Below, one piece after another: positions 1 to 55,043 of a stretch of 64,000 bases of DNA (within the stretch, counting starts at the first letter, position 1; the number at the start of each line of letters is the position of its first letter). The stretch covers positions 10,677-74,676 of the forward strand of contig JAGCVZ010000008.1 in the NCBI GenBank assembly GCA_017962125.1. Direction: 5' to 3'. The stretch comes from Alphaproteobacteria bacterium (lineage in GTDB: Bacteria; Pseudomonadota; Alphaproteobacteria; Rs-D84). The position numbers and the translations under genes were made by a program. The notes beneath the pieces are model-generated. The model saw only the letters and a program-made list of their open reading frames with translations, was not told the DNA's origin and did no database searches.

Positions 1-110
1 TTCGAAAAATTCCACACAAGGTCCGCGGCTTAATTGTTTTGACTTTAAAACATTTTCTACCGCTTTAAATTCTTTTCTGTTTATATTGGGTCGAAACAAC
101 GGAATTTTTT

Positions 111-959
111 TCATAGTTCTTTTTGCTTGGTATTATTACAGATTTGAGTGATTAAATTTTTATTATATGTCGCAATTAATTTTGGATTTTCAAACGGTCT
201 GTTTGTGTCCTGTTTACCATAAGTTACAGGTTTCCCATACATATCAACTATGACAGGCGTTTGACTTTTGTGAGCATAACGTAATATCGCATCATAAGCC
301 GCAATATCCCATTCATATTGCCGATGGAATAACGGCATAATATCGCCCTGGCCAGATAATATCAATGCGGGGTTCGGTGCCCCCAATGTTTCTGTGAATT
401 TTGTTATATTAAATTGCCGCAAATACTGTTTTATAGGTTCTGGATCTGGGGACGCGTTGGTTATTATTCCACGCAAATTTTTGCTACACAAACTATATTT
501 AAGCGTTTTCTTTTTACTTTCCTTTACAAAATATGATCCTGTTATGGATGAAGCGGCATATATTATATTTTGTTCTGGAAAACAAGCAAGCCCTATAACA
601 GGTTTACCCCTGTAAATTAATGATATTAAAATAGAATACGGTCCAGTATCATGAGAAAAGCAGAAAGAACCATCCAATGGGTCTATACACCAAAACGTAT
701 CAGAAGTTAACCTTGTATGATATTCTTCTGAGATAATAGGAAAATCGCTAATTAAACGGATTTTTTTGTGTAAAAAGTCGGACATTAAAAAGTCTTCATT
801 TTCTGCAGGTGTTTCTGTGACAGATATTATTTCGTCCAGGTCAAAAGGCAAAAAACCGTTTTTATAGATATCTTTGCGAATTTGTTGAGCATATTTACCA
901 GATTCTGAAATAATTTCAAAAGAATCATTTAGTAATTTGTTTATATCAAGTTCCATCAT
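111..959 (-). CDS. Inositol-monophosphatase / CysQ-type bisphosphate nucleotidase family phosphatase
   Basis: 282-aa ORF. 'WCIDPLDGS' fits the W-x-(I/V)-DP-(I/L)-DG metal-binding motif of the IMPase/FBPase superfamily. Its start overlaps the stop of the upstream ORF by 4 nt (operon). Confidence 0.6.
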   Translation of the reverse strand: MMELDINKLLNDSFEIISESGKYAQQIRKDIYKNGFLPFDLDEIISVTETPAENEDFLMSDFLHKKIRLISDFPIISEEYHTRLTSDTFWCIDPLDGSFCFSHDTGPYSILISLIYRGKPVIGLACFPEQNIIYAASSITGSYFVKESKKKTLKYSLCSKNLRGIITNASPDPEPIKQYLRQFNITKFTETLGAPNPALILSGQGDIMPLFHRQYEWDIAAYDAILRYAHKSQTPVIVDMYGKPVTYGKQDTNRPFENPKLIATYNKNLITQICNNTKQKEL

Positions 960-1930
960 CTTCCTTCCATATATAATTCGTAAACGTTTGGATTTTTCTT
1001 AATAAGTTCAATTAATTTATCAGTTTGTATATCGGCACAATTTTGTCTGCTTTTACCCATTTGTAAACCGTTTATGCCATGTAACGCAGGTGTGTATAAA
1101 ATATATGTTGGTTTCATAGTAATATTATATGCTTGGTATAATGCATACCTGCTGTCAAAATCTCTTTCTTTATAATGATCTAATCCACTGATACACAAAT
1201 CTATATCATAGTATTTTATACGTGGCAGTGCCAAAACCTTGTGATACAACCAATAGTATAAATCGTGGTAATTATGGGTTCCTTGGTACGAACAATCTGG
1301 ACATACTAGTTTGATATTATCTGGGGCTATAACTTTCGCTTGTGTGCGCGCAGATGTACATTTTGGACATATAGGATTACAATATGTGTACGGGAAACTT
1401 TTATGCAAAGGAAAACCAAGGTTTTGCATTATATTTCCTAATAGGTTTGGGTTTTTAATAGTTTTTAACACAACTTCTTTCATAATTGGCAAATCGCGCA
1501 TACTGGAGTTACGCACACATTGTATAGAAACATTTGGAAAACGCATTTGTACTTCTTGGACAGACGAATATATAACGTGTTCCCAATAATCCACATCGTG
1601 GGCAGGATCTTTTGAAAATTGGAAAGTTGTAAACTGGGGAATCACATTAAAAGGATATTCTTTCCAGTTCGTTTTTTCGGGGTCAAATCTTGTTTGTTCC
1701 CAATCATTTAAAAATACAAAAAAATTGAATTGCGCTTTCTTATTATTTTTCTCTAATTCTTCGCAAAGTAATATAGGATACGCAACGAAAGGAATTTTAT
1801 TGCCAGCATGAAATCCGTATGGCTTTATTCCCAAAAAAATGTTTTCTGTTCCTTTAAATTCCTTTGCAATTTCTTTTAACCCGTCCATTAAAAGATAAGG
1901 CTTGTGTTCCAACATAATCATATTCTCCAT
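956..1930 (-). CDS. Class-I aminoacyl-tRNA-synthetase-like protein (HIGH/KMSKS-like motifs, Cys4 ribbon), possible truncated class-I LysRS paralogue
   Basis: 324-aa ORF. 'GIKPYGFHAGN' resembles the class-I LysRS HIGH region (G-x-x-PSG-x-xHIGN) and 'LQMGKSRQN' resembles KMSKS. It carries 'CPKC...CPDC'. It is too short to include an anticodon-binding domain. Confidence 0.35.
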   Translation of the reverse strand: MENMIMLEHKPYLLMDGLKEIAKEFKGTENIFLGIKPYGFHAGNKIPFVAYPILLCEELEKNNKKAQFNFFVFLNDWEQTRFDPEKTNWKEYPFNVIPQFTTFQFSKDPAHDVDYWEHVIYSSVQEVQMRFPNVSIQCVRNSSMRDLPIMKEVVLKTIKNPNLLGNIMQNLGFPLHKSFPYTYCNPICPKCTSARTQAKVIAPDNIKLVCPDCSYQGTHNYHDLYYWLYHKVLALPRIKYYDIDLCISGLDHYKERDFDSRYALYQAYNITMKPTYILYTPALHGINGLQMGKSRQNCADIQTDKLIELIKKNPNVYELYMEGR

Positions 1931-3048
1931 TTTTTACAAATATCTTCAAAGATAAATTTTGCACCACTTGTTCCATATGTTTTTAATAAATTATATTGTT
2001 TGTTTGTGTCCGGTACAGACGAAACAGTTTGTTGAAATAATTCTACAAATTTATCTATTGTTTTCTTAGATTGTTTTACATCGTTTGCCATTTTATTGAT
2101 TTTTATAATCGCATCGTATTCCGGCAGACCCAAAATATCCAAATCTTTATCAATAACAGATTCCCATGTAATATCTGTGCCATTTGCATCAAATTGCTTG
2201 AATATATTGTGATTAACCCATTGGCTGAGATTAGTGGGCATTATAAAATTTATCGGTGTTTTAAAATAAATAGATTCTATGGTCGTGTTTAACCCGGGTG
2301 TACTTATGCACAATTCTGAAAGTGAAAGTTTACGTAAAAAAGCACCTTTTGATAAACTTATAAATTCTATATTGGGCGAAGATACATGTTGTTTTAAATA
2401 ATTTAATCCGTCATTTCCACCACAAACAGTAATATATTTCTGAGTTTCATTTAGGGCAACAGATATTAAATCCAGATAATCAGTAGGTGGATTATCGCTC
2501 AATGGTGATTTTAACCCGCCCAGTTGCAACAGCACACCCTGGCGGTTTTTCTTGCTTTTTTGTATAAAATCCAATGCATTATCAATTATAAGCGGGGTAA
2601 TAATCGCATTTTTATGTCCAGAGGTTTTTTCTGAAACCGTAGGAAAATCACTTGCATAATACATGTCTGCTTTCAGATAATCGTCCGGAATTTTATCCCA
2701 CAAATATGTCAACGTATCTATGAAACATGATGGTATTCCCAATTTATACGCAGCCAAAACGGCAAATCTATTCAAAGAACTGACTACATACGGATCTGGA
2801 TATTCTTTTAATAATTTTATTATTTCTGAGACATTGCGTTGATCTGCATCTATTATTGTTAGTGTTTTATAATCTTCTAGAATTTCTTTACACAAGCCAC
2901 GTGCAATAACGTAAATTTGTATATTTTTGAGATTTAAAAAATGGCGCAAAACCGCCATCATAGTCGCCGTGGGACCATAACCAAAAGGGTTAGAAAAAAA
3001 CAACAAACTTTTCATAAATAACCGTTGTTTTCTGCTTTGAGTGTACAA
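1918..3048 (-). CDS. GT-B-fold glycosyltransferase-like protein
   Basis: 376-aa ORF. The Gly-rich N-terminus 'FFSNPFGYGPTATMMAV' and two-lobed length are typical of MurG/UDP-glycosyltransferase-like enzymes. The track start at 3048 is TTG; the first ATG is at 3015. It overlaps the downstream ORF by 13 nt. Confidence 0.3.
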   Translation of the reverse strand: MYTQSRKQRLFMKSLLFFSNPFGYGPTATMMAVLRHFLNLKNIQIYVIARGLCKEILEDYKTLTIIDADQRNVSEIIKLLKEYPDPYVVSSLNRFAVLAAYKLGIPSCFIDTLTYLWDKIPDDYLKADMYYASDFPTVSEKTSGHKNAIITPLIIDNALDFIQKSKKNRQGVLLQLGGLKSPLSDNPPTDYLDLISVALNETQKYITVCGGNDGLNYLKQHVSSPNIEFISLSKGAFLRKLSLSELCISTPGLNTTIESIYFKTPINFIMPTNLSQWVNHNIFKQFDANGTDITWESVIDKDLDILGLPEYDAIIKINKMANDVKQSKKTIDKFVELFQQTVSSVPDTNKQYNLLKTYGTSGAKFIFEDICKKWRI

Positions 3049-3537
3049 AATAATTTAACGGAATCAAGTATTTTTAATAAGTAATTATTTTTTGTTTTTT
3101 GATGTATTAGTTTTTATCCCCAACTTTTTATATCTGTACATTATGGCATAAAAAAACGATGCAAAATCCCCATTGTTTCCTATTTTATTCTTGTTGTGCA
3201 TCTTTTAATACTGCTAAACTTATACCAGAAATAGAGCCGGTTTGAGCAACGGAATTACCCCGTATCGTTGCCGGCTCTATCTTTATTTCTTTAACTTTAT
3301 TTTCTGCAAAATTCTTATTTGCTTCGGGATATATAGAAATGGCTAAAAAAACGGTAACAAAATTGAGATATTATGAACCTGATATATACGCCTGCGAATC
3401 TAAAAAATAATTAAAACAATATCCAAATCTATGTTCAAGGCGATAGATAAATTCAGAAAAGCACCGACACGTTTTACAGAAACGTTTTTAAAAGCGAGAT
3501 GGCAGTATAAGTTTCAAAAAAAACTTTTGCGCGGTCA

Positions 3538-4572
3538 TTAAAACACATACTTAAATTCTGCGCCGCCGTTCCAACCACTGTGTGCACCATCATGACGTCC
3601 AAAGTTTATATTTAAACTAAATTCGTTAAATGTTTGCGAAAGACTTATTCCGTATTCAAAATAGTTGTTAATGTTTAATTTTGATAAAGTCTCACTATTT
3701 GCCCGCTGTCTGCCACCTCCAACAAAGTTCATAATATAACCAAAATGCCCGCCAACAGACAATCCATCGCCAATGTTACTTAAAACATCAAACATCGGCG
3801 AAAGTTCAAATAAATTGAAATCCTTGCCGGTAACCTTGACACTACCATCAGATTTATAACTTGCCGAATTCATCCAGGTATAGCCAGCACGTAATGACGG
3901 TCGCAACAAAACCGTATCATAAAAATTGTACGAATACGCCACATTACCAATGATGCCAGCATAGAAATTATTAAAACCATCGCGATGTACTGATGCGCCA
4001 ATATCATTAGCAGCAAATCCAAAATCCGCCATACCAGATAACTCTATATCACCGAATTTTTTACCAACATATGCCCCAATAAACGCGCCATCATTGTCTA
4101 TATCTAAAACATCGTTTTTCGTGTGCGACCCTGCATACCCACCAAAGAATTGAAGTCTTGTCGCATTAAATTCATTAGCATAAGCGGCGAAAATCAAATC
4201 GGACGTGTTTTTAACATGAGGATGCGATTTAAATTTTATTTTATCATAAGAATGTTGCCATCCGATACGTAAATTGTTATCTGATATGTCACCTCCATTA
4301 CGTCCAGAAACCAACGGTAACACTCCTGTATCATCTCCGAATTCACCATAATACAACATCTCTCCATATTCATCTGCGTCTAGTTCTTTTTCAGAAGTTC
4401 TTGAAAATGCGGACGGAACCTCTGATATCATAGGCACAAACACCCGATTAGCAATTTCGTGCTGAGTTGTTGCGATATTGTGCGCAGAAATTGAATTTCC
4501 ATATAAGCCAAAATTCGCAGAATGTGCCACAGATGTTAACAAAATTCCTATTAAAGCATATTGTATTTTCAT
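3538..4572 (-). CDS. Outer-membrane beta-barrel protein
   Basis: Signal peptide 'MKIQYALIGILLTSVAHSA' after a GGAGAG RBS. Gly/aromatic-rich alternating strands. The C-terminus 'GGAEFKYVF' ends in Phe, as in OMP barrels. Confidence 0.55.
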   Translation of the reverse strand: MKIQYALIGILLTSVAHSANFGLYGNSISAHNIATTQHEIANRVFVPMISEVPSAFSRTSEKELDADEYGEMLYYGEFGDDTGVLPLVSGRNGGDISDNNLRIGWQHSYDKIKFKSHPHVKNTSDLIFAAYANEFNATRLQFFGGYAGSHTKNDVLDIDNDGAFIGAYVGKKFGDIELSGMADFGFAANDIGASVHRDGFNNFYAGIIGNVAYSYNFYDTVLLRPSLRAGYTWMNSASYKSDGSVKVTGKDFNLFELSPMFDVLSNIGDGLSVGGHFGYIMNFVGGGRQRANSETLSKLNINNYFEYGISLSQTFNEFSLNINFGRHDGAHSGWNGGAEFKYVF

Positions 4573-19188: not shown

Positions 19189-20811
19189 ATGTTAATTGTA
19201 AAAAATCTTGAAAAATCATTTGATGGAAATCAGATTATAAAAAATCTGAGTTTTTCTGTTGCAGATGGCGATAAAGTTGCGGTCGTCGGGCTAAATGGTG
19301 CGGGCAAGTCAACGCTGTTCAGGATATTGCTGGACCAAATATCTTATGATTCTGGTGAGTTTTTTATGGGTAAAAAACCTCGAATTGGTTGGATGCCACA
19401 AACTGTGGATGAACTGAATCTACCGAATGATATAAATGTTTATGATTTTCTGCGTTCGGGTCGACCTTTGCCCCAAATAGAAAGTAAAATAACGGAAATT
19501 TATCAAAAAATAGCAAACGGTGACACATCTACCGAAATATTAAATTTATTGGGGCAATATCAAAATGAATTTGACAGTTGGGACGGGTATTCTGCGGAAT
19601 CAGAATTAGAAAATATGATTATCCAGATGGGGGTTCCACAAGAAAACCTTGATAAAAACCTTGGGGAATTATCAGGTGGGCAAAAGTCAAAAATATCTTT
19701 TGTTAGAACTTTGTATTCTCGTCCCGATGTTTTATTTTTGGATGAACCAACAAATCATCTGGATGCGGCTAGTCGTGAATGGATGATGAACTATTTAATC
19801 AAGACCAAATCAACTGTGATATTTATTTCGCATGATGAAGAATTTTTAACCAGAGTCGCAGATAAAGTTTTGTATTTGGATACAATGTCACATACTGGGA
19901 CTTTATATGGCTTTGGATATGATAAATTTATAAAAACTTTGGCGGAAACAAACGCAAGTTTAGAAAGACAATTTCAAAAACAAATGGACGAAATCAATAG
20001 AATACAAAAATTTATTGATGCACAGCGTGGAAAGTCTGGAAAAATTAAGCGCCAGGCACAAAGCCGTGAAAAATTGTTAGAAAAAAAGAAGCAAAATTTG
20101 GTCATTGTTTCGCAAGAAAAGAAAATAATTGATTTAGATTTGCAACCAAACAGGGCGGAAGATATTATCCCAATCGGCGTTGAAAATTTGAATTTTGCGT
20201 ATGATGCCAAAAAGCCAGTTATTAAAAAATTGTCTTTTTCATTAAACCGTGGTGAAAAATTTATTATTGTTGGTGAAAATGGTGCTGGCAAATCGACTCT
20301 ATTAAAACTGATAATGGGAATTTTGAAACCAGATTCTGGAAAAATATATATCGGTAAAAAAACAGACTTGGGGTATTATGCCCAGGAACACGAAACATTA
20401 GATTTTAATGTCAGTGTTTTTGACAATGTATCAAATGTTTCAAATTTACCAACTGTAAAATTACGTTCTGTATTAAGTCATTTTAACTTTGTGGGCGATA
20501 AATTAAAGCAAAAGGTTCAAACATTATCGCCAGGTGAACGTAGTAGGCTTGAATTATGTAAATTATGTTTAAGTGGTGCTAATACATTATTGTTGGACGA
20601 ACCTACAAATCATTTGGATGTTGCCACCAAGAAAGTAATGGCAGAAAGTTTACATGATTATGGTGGGACTTTGTTAATAGTCAGTCATGATTTAGATTTT
20701 CTTAGATATCTTGGTGTTGAAAGAATGTTAATGTTGCCCAGTGGTCGGTTGCAATTCTTTGACGAAAAAATAGTAAAAAGATACATTGATAAAGAAAAGA
20801 AACAAATATAA
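19189..20811 (+). CDS. ABC-F family ATPase (two NBDs, no TMD)
   Basis: 540 aa. Two Walker A motifs ('GLNGAGKST', 'GENGAGKST'), two signatures ('LSGGQKSK', 'LSPGERSR'), two 'LLLDEPTNHLD' motifs, and a basic interdomain linker. Confidence 0.9.
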   Translation: MLIVKNLEKSFDGNQIIKNLSFSVADGDKVAVVGLNGAGKSTLFRILLDQISYDSGEFFMGKKPRIGWMPQTVDELNLPNDINVYDFLRSGRPLPQIESKITEIYQKIANGDTSTEILNLLGQYQNEFDSWDGYSAESELENMIIQMGVPQENLDKNLGELSGGQKSKISFVRTLYSRPDVLFLDEPTNHLDAASREWMMNYLIKTKSTVIFISHDEEFLTRVADKVLYLDTMSHTGTLYGFGYDKFIKTLAETNASLERQFQKQMDEINRIQKFIDAQRGKSGKIKRQAQSREKLLEKKKQNLVIVSQEKKIIDLDLQPNRAEDIIPIGVENLNFAYDAKKPVIKKLSFSLNRGEKFIIVGENGAGKSTLLKLIMGILKPDSGKIYIGKKTDLGYYAQEHETLDFNVSVFDNVSNVSNLPTVKLRSVLSHFNFVGDKLKQKVQTLSPGERSRLELCKLCLSGANTLLLDEPTNHLDVATKKVMAESLHDYGGTLLIVSHDLDFLRYLGVERMLMLPSGRLQFFDEKIVKRYIDKEKKQI

Positions 20812-46860: not shown

Positions 46861-47007
46861 CTATGCGCGATAGACCATGATGCATGCGCATGGACTAAGT
46901 TTCAATTCGTTTGTATCATATCCGATTCCAACCGGTTCGCGGTCATAAATTTGACCACACCCGGCAAGTGTCAGCCCCAAAAATATGGCAACTAAAAACT
47001 TTTTCAT
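46861..47007 (-). CDS. Small lipoprotein (VirB7-like by size and position)
   Basis: ATG at 47007 behind GGAGAAAG. 'MKKFLVAIFLGLTLAGCG' lipobox. 48 aa. First gene of the operon. Confidence 0.45.
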   Translation of the reverse strand: MKKFLVAIFLGLTLAGCGQIYDREPVGIGYDTNELKLSPCACIMVYRA

Positions 47008-47085: not shown

Positions 47086-47113
47086 TTGAAATTTGGAAAA
47101 AATGTCCTATAAT
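47086..47113 (+). promoter_or_regulatory. Sigma70-like promoter of the aspS leader
   Basis: TTGAAA (47086-91), 16 nt, TATAAT (47108-13). Confidence 0.55.
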
Positions 47114-47119
47114 GAAAAA

Positions 47120-47396
47120 CGAAAGCCGATAATCCACTAACAATGGGGAGGCGGAAGAAGAACGGCGGCAAGATACTTGCGCTCATTAGAACTTCCCGGG
47201 ATTGCCCGTTACAGCAAACGACTCTTTAATGGTATGGCGAATCCAGCGAGAGTTAAAAAGGCAACATTGGCGACAGTGTTGTAAAACAAGGTGGCACCGC
47301 GTTGGTGTTGTGTATTCTGAAATACGATATGCACGATATTTAACGTCCTTGTGTTCTTATTATCAGCAGTAATAACGAAACATAAAGGAGGTTAAA
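47120..47396 (+). promoter_or_regulatory. T-box riboswitch leader with SD-sequestering expression platform
   Basis: 'AAACAAGGUGGCACCGCG' matches the T-box consensus. Antiterminator-type fold: acaagg/ccttgt, a 7-nt bulge UGGCACC, and gcgtt/aacgt. F-box-like 'CCGUUA' at 47206-11. The 3' strand 'aacgtcctt' (47342-50) can instead pair with the SD 'aaggaggtt' (47385-93). Confidence 0.6.
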
Positions 47397-48713
47397 ATGT
47401 CAATGATAAGAACGCATATCGCCGAAATTCCACAAAAGATTGGCGAAACAATAACTGTCAAAGGTCACGCGCAAACAATACGCGCGCAATCGGGTGTTGC
47501 GTTTATTGTCCTGCGTGAAATAACTGGAACTGTTCAATGTGTTGTTGAGCGGGGAACGTCGGTCTTTGAAACAGTAAAAAAAATCACAACGGAATCTGTC
47601 ATTTCCGTAACAGGAACCGTTGTAAAAACATCCAGTACGGAATCGGGTTATGAAATCCACGTGTCCGAATTGGAAATAATATCACTGGCGGAGGCGACAC
47701 CGATACCAGTAACCACAAAAGGCAGTGCCGAAGTCACACCGGAAAAATCGCAAGATTGGCGTTTCTTGTCGTTGCGTTCACCGCGCAGTGCGACAATCAT
47801 GCGCGCTTTTTCTGCAATGACAGCGGGTTATCATGAATATCTGGAAAAACAAGGTTTCATTGAAATCCAAACACCAAAAATCATGGCAACACCGTCTGAA
47901 TCCAAGGCCGAATTATTCAAACTTGAATACTTTGGGCAAACGGCATACCTTGCGCAATCGCCCCAGTTGTTCAAACAGATGGCAATAGCAAGTGGCCTTG
48001 AACGCGTGTTCGAAGTCGCACCAGCATTCCGTGCGGATAAATCTTTCACAACTCGTCATGCAACCGAATTCACATGTTACGATGTTGAAATGGGTTACAT
48101 TGAAAGTTTTGAAGAAGTGATGACAGAATTGGAACAAACGATACGCTATATGCTGACATCAATAAAAAAGACGTGTGGCAAAGAAATCGAAAAGTATTTC
48201 GGTATCACAGAGTTCCAGTTAAAAAAGCCGATTCCACGTATAACCATGGCGCGTGCCAAAGAAATCTTGCGTGAAATGGGTGTTGCATCAGAACAGCCGG
48301 ATCTTACCACGGCGGAAGAAAAGGCACTGGGCGAATACGTGCGGGAACACTTTGGTTCAGAATTCGTCTATGTCACCGAATGGCCATGGGAGGCGCGTCC
48401 GTTCTATCACAAGAAAGGCATTGGTGAACACGGTGAACCGATATCTGTTTCGGCCGACTTGTTATACAAGGGTGTCGAAATTGTGACATGCGCCCAACGT
48501 GAAGAATCCTATAGCAAACTGTGTGAACAATTGCGCGAAAAGGGTTTGCACCAAGAAGGTCTGCAGTGGTATCTGGAATGCTTCCGCTATGGCATGCCGC
48601 CACATGGTGGTTGGGGGTTTGGTGGCGCACGGTTTATAAAACAGTTGTTGGAATTACCAACAATCCGTGAAGCGATGTTTTTATTCCGTGGACCGACACG
48701 CTTGATGCCCTAA
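47397..48713 (+). CDS. aspS: Aspartyl-tRNA synthetase, archaeal/eukaryal type (no GAD insertion)
   Basis: 438 aa. N-terminal OB fold, class-II motif 2 'FRADKSFTTRHATEFTCYDVEM', motif 3 'GGWGFGGARF', and C-terminal 'FRGPTRLMP' (the AspRS 'FPRD..RL.P' ending). Far shorter than the ~590-aa bacterial type. Confidence 0.85.
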   Translation: MSMIRTHIAEIPQKIGETITVKGHAQTIRAQSGVAFIVLREITGTVQCVVERGTSVFETVKKITTESVISVTGTVVKTSSTESGYEIHVSELEIISLAEATPIPVTTKGSAEVTPEKSQDWRFLSLRSPRSATIMRAFSAMTAGYHEYLEKQGFIEIQTPKIMATPSESKAELFKLEYFGQTAYLAQSPQLFKQMAIASGLERVFEVAPAFRADKSFTTRHATEFTCYDVEMGYIESFEEVMTELEQTIRYMLTSIKKTCGKEIEKYFGITEFQLKKPIPRITMARAKEILREMGVASEQPDLTTAEEKALGEYVREHFGSEFVYVTEWPWEARPFYHKKGIGEHGEPISVSADLLYKGVEIVTCAQREESYSKLCEQLREKGLHQEGLQWYLECFRYGMPPHGGWGFGGARFIKQLLELPTIREAMFLFRGPTRLMP

Positions 48714-51732: not shown

Positions 51733-53991
51733 TTAAAACTGTGTTTCAAACGAAAGCAAGAAGCGGCGTTCGCGGTCGTGCGGACCGGTTTTCAGTGGCC
51801 AACCCCAACTGAAATTCATTGGCCCCATCGGCGTATTCCAATATATACCAACACCGGCCGATGTACGAAGCCCCGTTTCAATATAATTCGGTTGCCCAAG
51901 GTAAGTATCTTCGCGTGCTGGCGGCTTGCCCAAAATACCGTAATCCATAAACACAAAACCCTTTATCTGATATTCGTCGGGAATAAAGATTGGAAAATTT
52001 AACTGTGTTGAACCGTTCGCCTTCCACATGCCGCCCAATGAATAAGACTGATATGCCCAATTACGACTGCCTACGCCGGCGATATCAAACCCACGCAATG
52101 ATTCACCACCCAAAAAGTAGCGGTATACACGTGGAACATAATCACCACCAATCGGCTGAATATAACCAAATTCCAGTGATGAACGTAATTGCCACCGGTC
52201 GTCCCAGAAATTCACCATGCCAATCACGTCAGCATTATACCGGAAAAATTCTTCTGTGCCACCGAACCCAGTATATGCCACACCGATATTCCCAACAATA
52301 CCAGTATGCGTATTTTGTTCAAAATTCGTATTCAAATTATGATATTTCCAATAAGTGCCAAGAGTATATAATGTTGCATCACGCCAACCACCTTCTTGCA
52401 AATCATAATTTTGATCGAATGATGCCGATAAACGTAACGTCTGAGACCAATGATCGGTCAATCGCCACCCAAGGCGCCCCGCCACAGTAAGTGAATCGCG
52501 GTCATATCCAAAACCACCAAGTCTTTTATAGTTATACATTGTATAAGATACATCAAATCCAGCAGACAATTCGCGTCCAAATAAGAACGGTTCGGTAAAA
52601 CTAAATAATGCCTGTTTTTGATACTGGGCAATCGAAGCGCGTAACTGAACCGTTTGTCCGCGCCCCATAAAATTATTTTCCGTAATTCCCGCATCAACCA
52701 TAAACCCATTTATATTCGACCAACCAAATCCACCAGATAATTCACCTGTTGGTTGTTCTTCGACTTTGATATCCAGGTTCATCATGTTTGCATCAGGAAT
52801 TCTACTTGGCACCATTTGTACATCTTTGAAATAGCGCGTACGCATCAAACGCTGACGACCCTGCTCAATAGTCTGCAGTGAAAATGGATCGCCCGCGCGC
52901 ATAGGAATTAATTGGTTTATCACAGAATCAAACGTGCGAACATTACCCAATATATTGATAGAATTCAAATAAATTCGATTTGTTTTTTGTATTTTGAATT
53001 TTAAATCAATCGTACGCGTGTCATCGTTCTTTTGTGGAATTGGATCAACACTTATGAACGCATAACCATAGTCCGCAACCGCACCGCGAATGTTGGAAAT
53101 AGTCGCCTCTACGGCATCAACATTGTACGTATCACCAGTGGAAACTTTCATAATACTAAACAGTTCTGAATTCGCCACATCCGAAAAAGGGTTATCCAAT
53201 TCGACTTTGCCAATTTTATATTTTTCACCTTCGTCTACATTGAAAACAACCGAATAAAATTGCCTGTCGGGCGTAAAAGTTCCCTTGGCGTTTTTAACCT
53301 GAAAATCGACATAGCCATTACGCAGATAGAACTGGCGTAACATTTGCTGGTCATATTGGATTCTATCTTCGTCATATACATCAAATTGTGACATAAAACG
53401 CCACCATGCATGTTCGCGCGAAAGAATTTCACCACGCAATGTTCTGTCGCTAAAACGGTCATTCCCTTCAAATTCAATAGATTCAATGTATGTCGGATGC
53501 CCTTCGGTAATCTCATAGACAACGTTCACGCGATTATCATCTAACAAGATTTTCTGCGGTTCGATTTTCGTTCCAAAGAACCCCTTGCGTTGGTACACCG
53601 TAAGCATACGACCAACATCCGCCCCAACAACAGATTCATCAAATGCGGAACGCTCAGATAACTTTATTTCTTTTTTTAAATCATCAGTTGAAACTTCGTC
53701 ATTACCTTCGACGGTAACCTGATTTACAATCGGGGATTCTGTGATTTTTATCTCCAACGTGTCACCAACGGTTTTAACAGAAACCTTTGAAAAATACCCA
53801 CTTTCTTGGAGTTTTTTTGCAATTTTGTTTGCGCGTTCAGCACTAACATCTTCCCCGACTTTTACATCGGCAAGTATTCTGATTGATTCCGCGTCCATAC
53901 GCCTATTCCCTGAAACATTTATACGCGAAACACCAGCATGTGCAACGCCGACTGACAACAGTGTCAAACAAAAAACAATTTTTTTCATCAT
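51733..53991 (-). CDS. bamA: Outer-membrane protein assembly factor BamA
   Basis: Signal peptide 'MMKKIVFCLTLLSVGVAHA', POTRA repeats ('I..I.V.GN.R'), a C-terminal barrel with 'YFLGGESLRGF', and a terminal '...FETQF'. ATGA overlap with the rseP stop; ATG at 53991. Confidence 0.95.
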   Translation of the reverse strand: MMKKIVFCLTLLSVGVAHAGVSRINVSGNRRMDAESIRILADVKVGEDVSAERANKIAKKLQESGYFSKVSVKTVGDTLEIKITESPIVNQVTVEGNDEVSTDDLKKEIKLSERSAFDESVVGADVGRMLTVYQRKGFFGTKIEPQKILLDDNRVNVVYEITEGHPTYIESIEFEGNDRFSDRTLRGEILSREHAWWRFMSQFDVYDEDRIQYDQQMLRQFYLRNGYVDFQVKNAKGTFTPDRQFYSVVFNVDEGEKYKIGKVELDNPFSDVANSELFSIMKVSTGDTYNVDAVEATISNIRGAVADYGYAFISVDPIPQKNDDTRTIDLKFKIQKTNRIYLNSINILGNVRTFDSVINQLIPMRAGDPFSLQTIEQGRQRLMRTRYFKDVQMVPSRIPDANMMNLDIKVEEQPTGELSGGFGWSNINGFMVDAGITENNFMGRGQTVQLRASIAQYQKQALFSFTEPFLFGRELSAGFDVSYTMYNYKRLGGFGYDRDSLTVAGRLGWRLTDHWSQTLRLSASFDQNYDLQEGGWRDATLYTLGTYWKYHNLNTNFEQNTHTGIVGNIGVAYTGFGGTEEFFRYNADVIGMVNFWDDRWQLRSSLEFGYIQPIGGDYVPRVYRYFLGGESLRGFDIAGVGSRNWAYQSYSLGGMWKANGSTQLNFPIFIPDEYQIKGFVFMDYGILGKPPAREDTYLGQPNYIETGLRTSAGVGIYWNTPMGPMNFSWGWPLKTGPHDRERRFLLSFETQF

Positions 53992-55043
53992 AATCCAAAT
54001 ACCCGCGCTATATCGTTCCACATGGTCAGCAAAAATACAAACCCAAGAAAAATCCAACCACACACAATTACAATTTCCATGCCTTTGCCACCAAGTTTTT
54101 TCCTTGTTACACCTTCAATTAATAAAATCAAAAGGTAACCGCCATCCAAAACCGGTAACGGCAACAGGTTTATCACACCCAAATTCACAGACAGCAGTGC
54201 AATAATGGATAAAAGTGCAAAGAAACCTGCCGCTAATGCCTGACCGGAAACCTGGGCAATAGTAATGAATGAACCAAGTTGTTTAGAAGATCTATCGCCA
54301 GTAATAATCTGTTTAAGTACAACAACCAGTGTTCGTGACTGATAATATGTTTCACGTGCCCCAGAATATATTGCGCCAAAGAACCCTTTCTTGCGAAATT
54401 CAGTTTTGTTCCCGTCTGCAACCAACCCCCATCGTGCCGCAGGAGCAATTTTTACATTTACAATTTCATCGCCACGCGAAATAACAACATCTGCATCATG
54501 GGTGCCGGCAAGTTCTTTGGCAATCACCAATTCACCCCAGTTTGTTATTTCTGAATTATCAATTTTAACGATAATGTCACCCGGTTTAATTCCGGCATGA
54601 AAAGCGACACTTTCTTGAATAACTTGACCAATTACTGGTAATTGAACGTTGCGGGGTTTAAACATAAATATGGCAGAATAAATTGCCCATGCCAAAATAA
54701 AATTCATAAACACGCCCGCCGCAATTATAATAAACTGTTTCCATGCCGGTACAGATAAATAATGCCCAACTTTCTTTTCTTTTGGCAATTCATTGTATTT
54801 TTTTCGATTAAACATGTCTTCTTGGCCATAAATAGAAACATATCCGCCAAGTGGTAAACATGCGATTTTCCAAATAGTTCCACGTTTGTCATGCCATTTT
54901 ACAATCGCCGGTCCAAAGCCAATGGAAAATGCATCAACTCGGACCCCCGCCCATCGCGCCGCCAAAAAATGTCCAAGTTCATGTATAAAAACCACGACCC
55001 CAAGGACAATCAATAATGCAATAATGGTTGTTATAGTATGCAT
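53988..55043 (-). CDS. rseP: RIP zinc metalloprotease RseP (M50)
   Basis: 'FIHELGHFLAAR' HExxH in TM1, a PDZ-like middle region ('GIKPGDIIVKIDN'), and 'NLLPLPVLDGG'. Confidence 0.9.
   Translation of the reverse strand: MHTITTIIALLIVLGVVVFIHELGHFLAARWAGVRVDAFSIGFGPAIVKWHDKRGTIWKIACLPLGGYVSIYGQEDMFNRKKYNELPKEKKVGHYLSVPAWKQFIIIAAGVFMNFILAWAIYSAIFMFKPRNVQLPVIGQVIQESVAFHAGIKPGDIIVKIDNSEITNWGELVIAKELAGTHDADVVISRGDEIVNVKIAPAARWGLVADGNKTEFRKKGFFGAIYSGARETYYQSRTLVVVLKQIITGDRSSKQLGSFITIAQVSGQALAAGFFALLSIIALLSVNLGVINLLPLPVLDGGYLLILLIEGVTRKKLGGKGMEIVIVCGWIFLGFVFLLTMWNDIARVFGL

Follow-up and report, generated by a model that had tools for sequence, protein, structure and literature searches.

The aspS leader and its gene

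The stretch of DNA analyzed here, referred to as the window, comprises 64,000 nucleotides of an Alphaproteobacteria bacterium (GenBank assembly GCA_017962125.1, contig JAGCVZ010000008.1, positions 10,677 to 74,676 of the forward strand), and all coordinates without a locus prefix are window positions. At 47125-47393, in the leader of aspS, which encodes an archaeal-type aspartyl-tRNA synthetase (AspRS), the window contains a T-box in the genome of a diderm gut alphaproteobacterium, "Candidatus Enterousia". The leader of ~275 nt was interpreted as a translational T-box with an ultrashort Stem I that monitors tRNA-Asn, a reading to which we assign a probability of roughly 85%; on the modeled folds, control is most likely exerted by masking of the aspS Shine-Dalgarno (SD) sequence. 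An earlier, sequence-only reading had proposed that an archaeal-type AspRS gene in a Gram-negative genome is preceded by a T-box that sequesters the SD, and this headline was borne out. The host was classified as diderm because BamA is encoded in the window (51733-54063).

The AspRS open reading frame (ORF) scored 463.5 bits against NF003483 (curated cut-off 353), the model of a type of AspRS to which NCBI gives the name non-discriminating, and has the archaeal-type architecture of about 430 aa without a GAD domain. Its closest matches in the PDB were 3nel and 1b8a (T. kodakarensis AspRS) and 1n9w (T. thermophilus AspRS2). The same AspRS is encoded at 74-97% identity by about 40 loci in public genomes, all of them metagenome-assembled genomes (MAGs) from ruminant and horse guts that are labeled Alphaproteobacteria or "Candidatus Enterousia"; NCBI places Enterousia in Alphaproteobacteria incertae sedis. 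The earlier suggestion that the gene was probably acquired horizontally found no support as a recent event. Gene and leader are conserved across the clade down to 47% identity and the composition is mildly different: the GC content at third codon positions is 0.43 in aspS vs. 0.34-0.38 in its neighbors, a gap too small for a transfer argument.

The promoter recognized in the sequence-only reading is present upstream of the leader (Table 1), and the distance from its TATAAT to Stem I was constant across orthologous leaders; transcription should start ~5-10 nt upstream of Stem I. The T-box stretch of the leader reads AAACAAGGUGGCACCGCG. Its core GGTGGNACCRCG (general consensus ...GGUGGNACCGCG) was found as a 12/12 match at 47290-47301, as described before, and occurs once in the window compared with 0.04 occurrences expected from shuffles. 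No further T-box was detected in the window by pattern search, by a permissive Rfam scan or by the family covariance model described below.

Table 1. Features of the aspS leader and the regulated gene, in window coordinates.
Feature	Position	Strand	Remarks
Sigma-70-type promoter TTGAAA-16-TATAAT	47086..47113	+	11/12 consensus matches
Ultrashort kink-turn (K-turn) Stem I	47125..47152	+	RF00230 alignment, covariation
Specifier AAC (Asn codon, 47139-47141) and conserved purine A47142	47139..47142	+	Stem I terminal loop
Stem II	47153..47196	+	Lower helix GGAAG/CUUCC; apical hairpin variable
Stem II S-turn region	47158-47163 and 47186-47191	+	AAGAAC opposite UUAGAA; A-G-A at 47188-47190
Stem IIA/B pseudoknot	47197..47218	+	IIA CGGG/CCCG; loop AUUG pairs with CAAA (47215-47218)
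F-box-like CCGUUA	47206-47211	+	CCGUCA in close relatives
Clade-specific inserted hairpin	47220..47254	+	GACUCUU...GAGAGUU, inner UGG/CCA; between IIA/B and Stem III
Stem III	47261..47282	+	GCAACAUUG, GCGA tetraloop, CAGUGUUGU; aligns to Stem III of RF00230
T-box sequence AAACAAGGTGGCACCGCG	47284-47301	+	
Discriminator, antisequestrator (ON) form	47286..47352	+	
A1 helix ACAAGG/CCUUGU	47286-47291 and 47347-47352	+	
T-box bulge UGGCACC, 7 nt	47292-47298	+	UGGC complements tRNA 3' end GCCA
A2 helix GCGUU/AACGU	47299-47303 and 47342-47346	+	
Variable 38-nt hairpin extending A2	47304-47341	+	
Sequestrator (OFF) helix	47342..47393	+	A2/A1 3' strand and following bases (AACGUCCUUGUGUU) with AACAU-A-AAGGAGGUU
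Hairpin capping the sequestrator	47357-47375	+	UUAUUA/UAAUAA
Shine-Dalgarno GGAGG	47387-47391	+	
Start codon ATG	47397-47399	+	
aspS, 438-aa archaeal-type AspRS	47397..48713	+	NCBIfam name: aspartate--tRNA(Asn) ligase

Anatomy and covariation of the leader

A default scan with the Rfam T-box model RF00230 (gathering score 93) reported no T-box in the window. Under permissive settings the full model (1-219) aligned to 47120-47353, the E-value being 2.2e-5 on the leader and 0.0025 on the whole window. The anatomy given by this alignment was a K-turn Stem I at 47125-47152, followed by Stem II, IIA, Stem III and the bulged helix.

This anatomy was examined on an alignment of 38 orthologous Enterousia leaders. 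RNAalifold, run unguided, predicted Stem I, Stem II, IIA, the extra hairpin, Stem III and the SD-sequestering helix. In the explicit ON structure 94.5% of the cells were paired vs. 39-48% with slid partners, and 21 pairs showed compensatory changes within the genus, a number that none of 500 shuffles reached. The signal came from upper Stem II (5 pairs), Stem III (8/9 pairs) and the IIB pseudoknot, where one pair is U-A in 23 leaders and C-G in 11.

Beyond the genus, the AspRS family is continuous down to 47% identity through alphaproteobacterial and "Rickettsiales" MAGs, and all 11 of the more distant loci carried a T-box leader whose Stem I is an ultrashort K-turn hairpin. An alignment of 18 diverse decoding modules (A3) had 91.4% of its cells paired, compared with 33-56% for slid partners, and 19 of its 27 pairs showed compensatory changes. 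In the diverse set these fell on the C-stem (2/3 pairs) and NC stem (4/4) of Stem I, on the lower (4/5) and upper (5/7) helices of Stem II, and on pseudoknot IIB (4/4; e.g., UUAGAC/GUCUAA in locus L055 and AAAGC/GCUUU in L057). The family covariance model built from A3 had a single match in the window, at 106.5 bits. L142 and L140, whose leaders had been held out, were recovered at 83.7 and 44.8 bits, and only 3 of 80 distant archaeal-type AspRS loci from metagenomes were matched. The leader of L034 was misaligned with the genus by MAFFT and had no RF00230 match; it was read by hand, and its Stem I assignment is tentative. One Enterousia leader (L033:2749-2847) has a 20-nt deletion and so lacks the IIA hairpin as well as the 3' strand of lower Stem II. 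Its family-model score was 49 bits vs. ~100 for its relatives, and either an error of assembly or natural damage to the T-box may be the cause.

Stem I is 28 nt long. Its C-stem (GCC/GGC) is followed by a K-turn layout, in which the 3-nt bulge GAU precedes tandem purines opposite GA, AA in the window and GA in the consensus; the NC stem (UCCA/UGGG) then closes the 7-nt terminal loop CUAACAA. The loop CUAACAA is invariant in the window and all other aligned Enterousia leaders, and is shared by L052, L053 and L139; CUGACAA, CGACA or UGACG was found in L054, L138, L056, L057, L140, L141 and L142. Across ~50 orthologous leaders, with AspRS identities of 47-100%, loop positions 3-5 were only AAC or GAC, followed by a purine, and the stem around the loop was wholly replaced through compensatory changes (UCCA/UGGG, GGUG/CACU, GCCG/CGGU, CCUG/CAGG). 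AAC and GAC are the two codons that would be expected for an AspRS serving tRNA-Asn or tRNA-Asp. The window's K-turn sequence, GAUAA, is also present in many Enterousia leaders and in L139 and L142. The canonical GAUGA or an equivalent occurs in a 12-member Enterousia subclade and in L052, L053, L054, L138 and L056. A G/A polymorphism thus recurs at a K-turn position that is usually held to be critical.

The sequence-only reading had placed Stem I differently, at the helix GGGGAG/CUUCCC with a small apical hairpin, and had named the AAC in UAGAACUU or a GAU in the apical loop as candidate specifiers. This helix does exist, and UAGAAC holds an Asn codon on the 3' side, where the specifier lies in T-boxes with a long Stem I. 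However, RF00230 puts GGGGAG/CUUCCC at Stem II and the preceding hairpin, with its K-turn, at Stem I. UAGAAC is nearly invariant in leaders with GAC loops as well as AAC loops and therefore cannot set specificity; within A3, GAAGAA and UAGA-C of Stem II were invariant or nearly so. UAGAAC corresponds to the A-G-A S-turn that has been described in Stem II of the Mycobacterium tuberculosis (Mtb) ileS T-box (PMC10651847). The apical loop that contains GAU varies freely among orthologous leaders (AUA, UUUC, GUGA, GCAA). We regard the earlier layout as highly improbable; the resemblance to the actinobacterial translational class that the sequence-only reading had noted did stand. The F-box-like sequence of the IIA/B pseudoknot resembles the described F-box CCGUCA (PMC7583486).

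The hairpin between IIA/B and Stem III is an insertion relative to RF00230. It was found only in the Asn-specifier clade, where its inner helix shows U-A to A-U changes, and is absent from the GAC clade. Its sequence is UCUCUUUAA...GGCGA...AGCGAGAGA, and the conservation of its internal loop and of the GGCGA loop suggests a possible tertiary contact.

The discriminator and the predicted Shine-Dalgarno sequestrator

The antiterminator-type helix that the sequence-only reading had drawn, with A1, a 7-nt bulge and A2, consists of standard pairs at 11/11 positions. Among 49 leaders, A1/A2 took 15 different forms, in which 149 of 150 cells were paired and 5 of 10 positions covaried. The earlier reading had named a bulged helix that fails to covary in homologous leaders as grounds for rejection, and the element clearly passes this check. 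The T-box bulge in L056 and L057 has 8 nt (UUGGCACC), compared with 7 in the canonical form.

No terminator-like site was found between the promoter and the ATG, in agreement with the sequence-only reading, which had proposed that the 3' strand of the discriminator masks the SD instead. AACGUCCUU (47342-47350) can pair with AAGGAGGUU (47385-47393) at 8 of 9 positions. When the two folds were compared on the platform (47283-47402), the unconstrained minimum free energy (MFE) structure was the sequestrator, at -34.8 kcal/mol vs. -26.4 kcal/mol for forced A1/A2 with a free bulge. The unconstrained MFE structure of the whole leader was also the sequestrator (-83.6 kcal/mol, z = -3.7, 0/200 shuffles as stable), and all four scored SD bases were paired to the T-box 3' strand. 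In 7/7 Asn-clade leaders tested the MFE structure masked the SD, and the ON form cost 5.5-12.6 kcal/mol. A more stable OFF state that the ligand is needed to overcome is the published T-box logic (PMC7583486, PMC7778990).

In a three-strand comparison, covariation linked the shared 3' strand to its ON partner as well as to its SD partner. In the window the shared strand AACGU faces GCGUU (A2 5' strand) in the ON form and the SD strand GGAGGUU in the OFF form; the corresponding strands are UGCGU, GCGCC and GGAGGCA in L052, and AGCGC, GCGCU and GGUGCU in L034. Such dual covariation is the sequence signature of two mutually exclusive helices, here the predicted antisequestrator and sequestrator.

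The leader could also act without SD occlusion, its alternative fold leading to Rho-dependent termination or to altered mRNA stability. Translation is often coupled to the access of Rho or RNase, the leader is long (~275 nt), and homologous decoding modules on contigs of the Candidate Phyla Radiation (CPR) use true terminators. The leader itself has no intrinsic terminator, and the SD lies within the competing helix, which stops 3 nt short of the AUG and covaries with the SD; this is the published translational T-box design. Control by these other routes in place of SD occlusion is thus considered unlikely, and a secondary effect of Rho or decay is compatible with the SD-masking T-box.

A single sequestrator model for the whole family was tried and rejected, as it fails in the GAC clade, where the ON form is the MFE structure or the SD pairs with the bulge. 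Within the Asp-specifier clade (L056, L057, L140, L142, L138, L055) the SD reads AAAGGUG, and the ON fold is the MFE structure or lies within 0-3 kcal/mol of it. The MFE structures of L140 and L142 have GGUG of the SD paired with CACC of the T-box bulge.

The probable tRNA partner and role of the AspRS

From the UGGC of the bulge, the sequence-only reading had predicted a tRNA with a G73 discriminator base, as carried by tRNA-Asp and tRNA-Asn. This was confirmed: tRNA-Asn(GUU) of the genus (L009:1065-1140) ends in G73-CCA, as does its tRNA-Asp(GUC), and L052 carries the same tRNA-Asn. As UGGC fits both, specificity must come from the pairing of AAC with GUU. The element might instead sense tRNA-Asp, or both tRNAs, with the AspRS under the control of its canonical substrate. 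The regulated enzyme is an AspRS, the bulge cannot discriminate between the two tRNAs, relatives with a GAC specifier exist, and T-boxes with relaxed or dual specificity are known from the literature. Against this, AAC is invariant across all aligned Enterousia leaders, and the family uses GAC where Asp is meant; reading of AAC by the anticodon GUC would put an A-C mismatch in the first position of the specifier, and in L139 an AAC T-box stands beside a bacterial-type AspRS able to serve tRNA-Asp. We therefore judge the sensing of tRNA-Asp, alone or along with tRNA-Asn, to be decidedly unlikely and retain tRNA-Asn as the ligand.

The context of two relatives fits a dedicated, extra AspRS for tRNA-Asn that is controlled by tRNA-Asn. 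In L139, a bacterial-type AspRS with a GAD domain (1-1127, minus strand; 459.6 bits against NF001750, cut-off 443) is divergent from the adjoining T-box-bearing archaeal-type aspS (1234-2832, plus strand), and therefore at least one relative has both AspRS types. L055, a human-gut Hadza contig, encodes tandem archaeal-type AspRS paralogs (1-1301 and 2304-3811), and only the downstream copy has a T-box. The L055 leader has the loop ACAACG (AAC) and the bulge UGGU; this bulge would call for either G-U wobble pairing to G73 or the base A73 in the tRNA. In L141 the annotated start of the gene falls within the T-box leader (1501-1560) and the true start, with the SD AAAGGUG, ~60 nt downstream; the deposited protein (452 aa) is probably ~20 residues too long.

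The AspRS probably provides the Asp-tRNA(Asn) from which Asn-tRNA(Asn) is made by the indirect route that depends on GatCAB, its synthesis being probably raised when charging of tRNA-Asn falls, and it would then have non-discriminating activity. The tRNA-Asn of the genus has a U1-A72 pair; this pair is widespread, and in tRNA-Asn it has been associated with the use of GatCAB (PMC4206432).

Proposed mechanism

From the sequence and its folds we infer that the leader binds tRNA, senses its charge and acts on translation. The anticodon GUU of tRNA-Asn would pair with the specifier AAC in the terminal loop of the K-turn Stem I, and the S-turn of Stem II, positioned by the IIA/B pseudoknot, would reinforce the codon-anticodon duplex. 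If the tRNA-Asn is uncharged, its 3' end G73-C-C-A would pair with UGGC of the bulge and stabilize the A1/A2 antisequestrator, leaving the SD free so that AspRS can be translated. If the tRNA-Asn is aminoacylated, the contact with the bulge would fail; the 3' strand of A1/A2 would then pair with the SD region in a helix ~8 kcal/mol more stable, and initiation would be blocked.

Weighing of the evidence

Several observations weigh against a translational, tRNA-Asn-sensing T-box. The first is the RF00230 score of 32.0 bits, against a gathering score of 93. The Rfam check suggested with the sequence-only reading, which had named a below-threshold score as grounds for rejection, thus came out formally under threshold, although the full-length model aligned at E = 2e-5. 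The score is low because a 7-nt loop stands in for 78 positions of Stem I and because insertions of ~46 nt and 38 nt are present, and not because of broken pairs. As RF00230 loses these Stem I positions and still matches over its whole length, the shortfall is not a valid refutation; the gathering score is a curation threshold and not a biological feature. The relatives scored 36-56 bits or had no match, all under the threshold. Second, the K-turn of the window (47128-47132) is GAUAA, in which the near-universal G of the first sheared pair is replaced by A. Third, the A1/A2 core and the SD helix are nearly invariant in the genus, and their covariation rests on ~12 distant leaders; a T-box core this invariant therefore carries little information at genus depth. 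Fourth, MFE folding gave a weak sequestrator or none in the distant GAC clade, and the expression logic is not uniform across the family.

Two further points concern the enzyme. The discrimination against tRNA-Asn by T. kodakarensis AspRS is presumably decided by Trp26 and Lys85, and Feng and colleagues reportedly found in 2003 that His and Pro at these positions permit U36. T. thermophilus AspRS2 has His and Pro at the equivalent positions. The AspRS of the window has Gln26 and Glu82 there, which matches neither the pattern of discriminating enzymes nor the textbook one of non-discriminating enzymes, and across the relatives these residues vary without tracking the specifier class. In addition, no asnS, gatCAB or second aspS was found among the 16 window ORFs scanned (the ten largest and six flanking aspS).

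The low Rfam score and the non-canonical K-turn, together with the deletion of part of Stem II and IIA in the relative L033, could be taken to mean that the leader is a decayed T-box relic that has lost its regulatory function. Yet every helix is kept by compensatory changes over ~50 leaders spanning 47-100% protein identity, there is little or no variation in the specifier loop, S-turn, F-box and bulge, and the missing distal Stem I and two insertions, not broken pairs, account for the score. A relic is considered extremely improbable, and a working tRNA-Asn T-box remains the preferred reading.

A possible wider aspS T-box family

The same module of Stem I, Stem II and IIA/B was found upstream of archaeal-type aspS in three environmental contigs, L118:474-700, L084:478-700 and L080:377-700, which scored 75, 61 and 50 bits with the family model. 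These leaders have true terminators with U-runs. The nearest named relatives of the AspRS of L118 and L084 belong to Parcubacteria/CPR (Ca. Lloydbacteria, Ca. Liptonbacteria, ACD_24). In three aspS leaders of termite-gut Alphaproteobacteria (L054:2380-2500, L138:1344-1500 and L034:2839-3000), GAC is the specifier in an ultrashort K-turn Stem I, only 24-41 nt separate Stem I from the T-box discriminator, and there is no Stem II or IIA/B pseudoknot. In the current literature Stem II is described as essential once Stem I is truncated.

It is possible, at somewhat less than even odds, that the element of the window is one tip of an undescribed, deep family of aspS T-boxes with an ultrashort Stem I. 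This family would be translational in host-associated Alphaproteobacteria and transcriptional in CPR/Parcubacteria, with switches between Asp and Asn specifiers, and would have shed Stem II and the pseudoknot in the three termite-gut lineages, whose leaders would be reduced to an ultrashort Stem I and the discriminator within ~85-125 nt. If these minimal leaders sense tRNA, they would be the smallest natural T-boxes and would contradict the view of Stem II as indispensable after loss of the Stem I platform.

Other features of the window

Divergent from aspS, a 48-aa ORF with a lipoprotein signal and lipobox (MKKFLVAIFLGLTLAGC...) was found at 46861-47007 on the minus strand, with a promoter TTGACC-18-TATAAT at 47061-47032 (minus strand). 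As aspS and this ORF each have their own promoter, the intergenic region has back-to-back promoters. At 19189-20811 (plus strand), an ORF scored above the NCBIfam cut-off for a ribosomal-protection-like ABC-F protein (406.7 vs. 380 bits).

Relation to known T-boxes and significance

The closest known system is the translational ileS T-box with an ultrashort Stem I of the actinobacteria Mycobacterium and Nocardia (Sherwood et al., 2015, as related in PMC7583486 and PMC7778990), which is 'class II' of TBDB. Both have a Stem I of K-turn layout without the distal platform and with the specifier in its apical loop, a Stem II with an A-G-A S-turn, a compact IIA/B pseudoknot with an F-box, Stem III, and A1, a 7-nt bulge and A2 that compete with an SD sequestrator, without a terminator. 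The decoding module has 94 nt here vs. 99 nt in Mtb T99. Unlike the ileS class, the element of the window lies in an alphaproteobacterial diderm host and upstream of an archaeal-type aspS, has the specifier and bulge for tRNA-Asn (AAC, G73) rather than tRNA-Ile, and contains an extra 35-nt hairpin between IIA/B and Stem III, a 38-nt extension of A2 and the K-turn GAUAA. The departure from ileS in Actinobacteria is a matter of distribution and not of mechanism. The leader is a known kind of T-box, the actinobacterial ileS-type translational one, with a new host, gene and tRNA.

With canonical transcriptional T-boxes (RF00230; B. subtilis tyrS and glyQS) the leader shares the T-box sequence, the pairing of the bulge with NCCA, a specifier followed by a purine, the K-turn layout, Stem II and IIA/B, Stem III, and a more stable competing helix as the default. 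In contrast to them, it has no long Stem I, AG bulge or distal-loop platform for the tRNA elbow, its specifier lies in a terminal and not an internal loop, and an SD sequestrator takes the place of the terminator. As the ultrashort class also lacks the long Stem I platform, the platform defines the canonical subclass and not the family.

An Asn-responsive T-box on genes of tRNA-dependent amidation has been described in C. acetobutylicum (Saad et al., 2012, as cited in PMC4206432 and PMC4574755). Going by those citing accounts, that case is similar in having a tRNA-Asn T-box over the indirect route to Asn-tRNA(Asn) and more than one AspRS in the organism. The C. acetobutylicum element is said to be transcriptional, to have a long Stem I and to control an operon. 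The element of the window differs from this Firmicute example in being a translational, single-gene element with an ultrashort Stem I. For a clade-specific insertion into the antiterminator domain there is precedent in the staphylococcal glyS T-boxes with 'stem Sa' (PMC9177973), which are otherwise standard T-boxes. They differ from the leader in host, gene and mode of control, and their insertion has another position and another sequence.

T-boxes count as a Gram-positive hallmark. Of 125 proteobacterial genomes covered by an early survey, 2 had T-boxes, those of Geobacter and Pelobacter, in each case upstream of leuA (PMC2494555); surveys report no others in Proteobacteria, and none have been recorded in Alphaproteobacteria by surveys or standard databases. 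The translational class with a short Stem I has been described as mostly actinobacterial (PMC7583486), and in TBDB, the main database, the search for this class was restricted to Actinobacteria and to RF00230 hits (PMC7778990). Literature searches returned nothing on T-boxes in Alphaproteobacteria or CPR bacteria. The element has remained unannotated because it scores below the Rfam threshold: the truncated Stem I keeps the RF00230 score too low for pipelines to report it, and current models miss the family entirely (32-56 bits vs. 93). The covariance model and the ~50 sequences collected here can be used to re-annotate such genomes.

The leaders also offer a natural series of Asn/Asp specifier swaps and natural domain-deletion variants with which to test which T-box modules tRNA recognition needs. 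The finding extends the T-box architecture for tRNA decoding and charge sensing to an uncultured clade of gut Alphaproteobacteria, where its function is predicted from sequence. It points to the charging of tRNA-Asn as the variable controlled through an extra archaeal-type AspRS, and would thereby bear on how reduced gut symbionts make Asn-tRNA.

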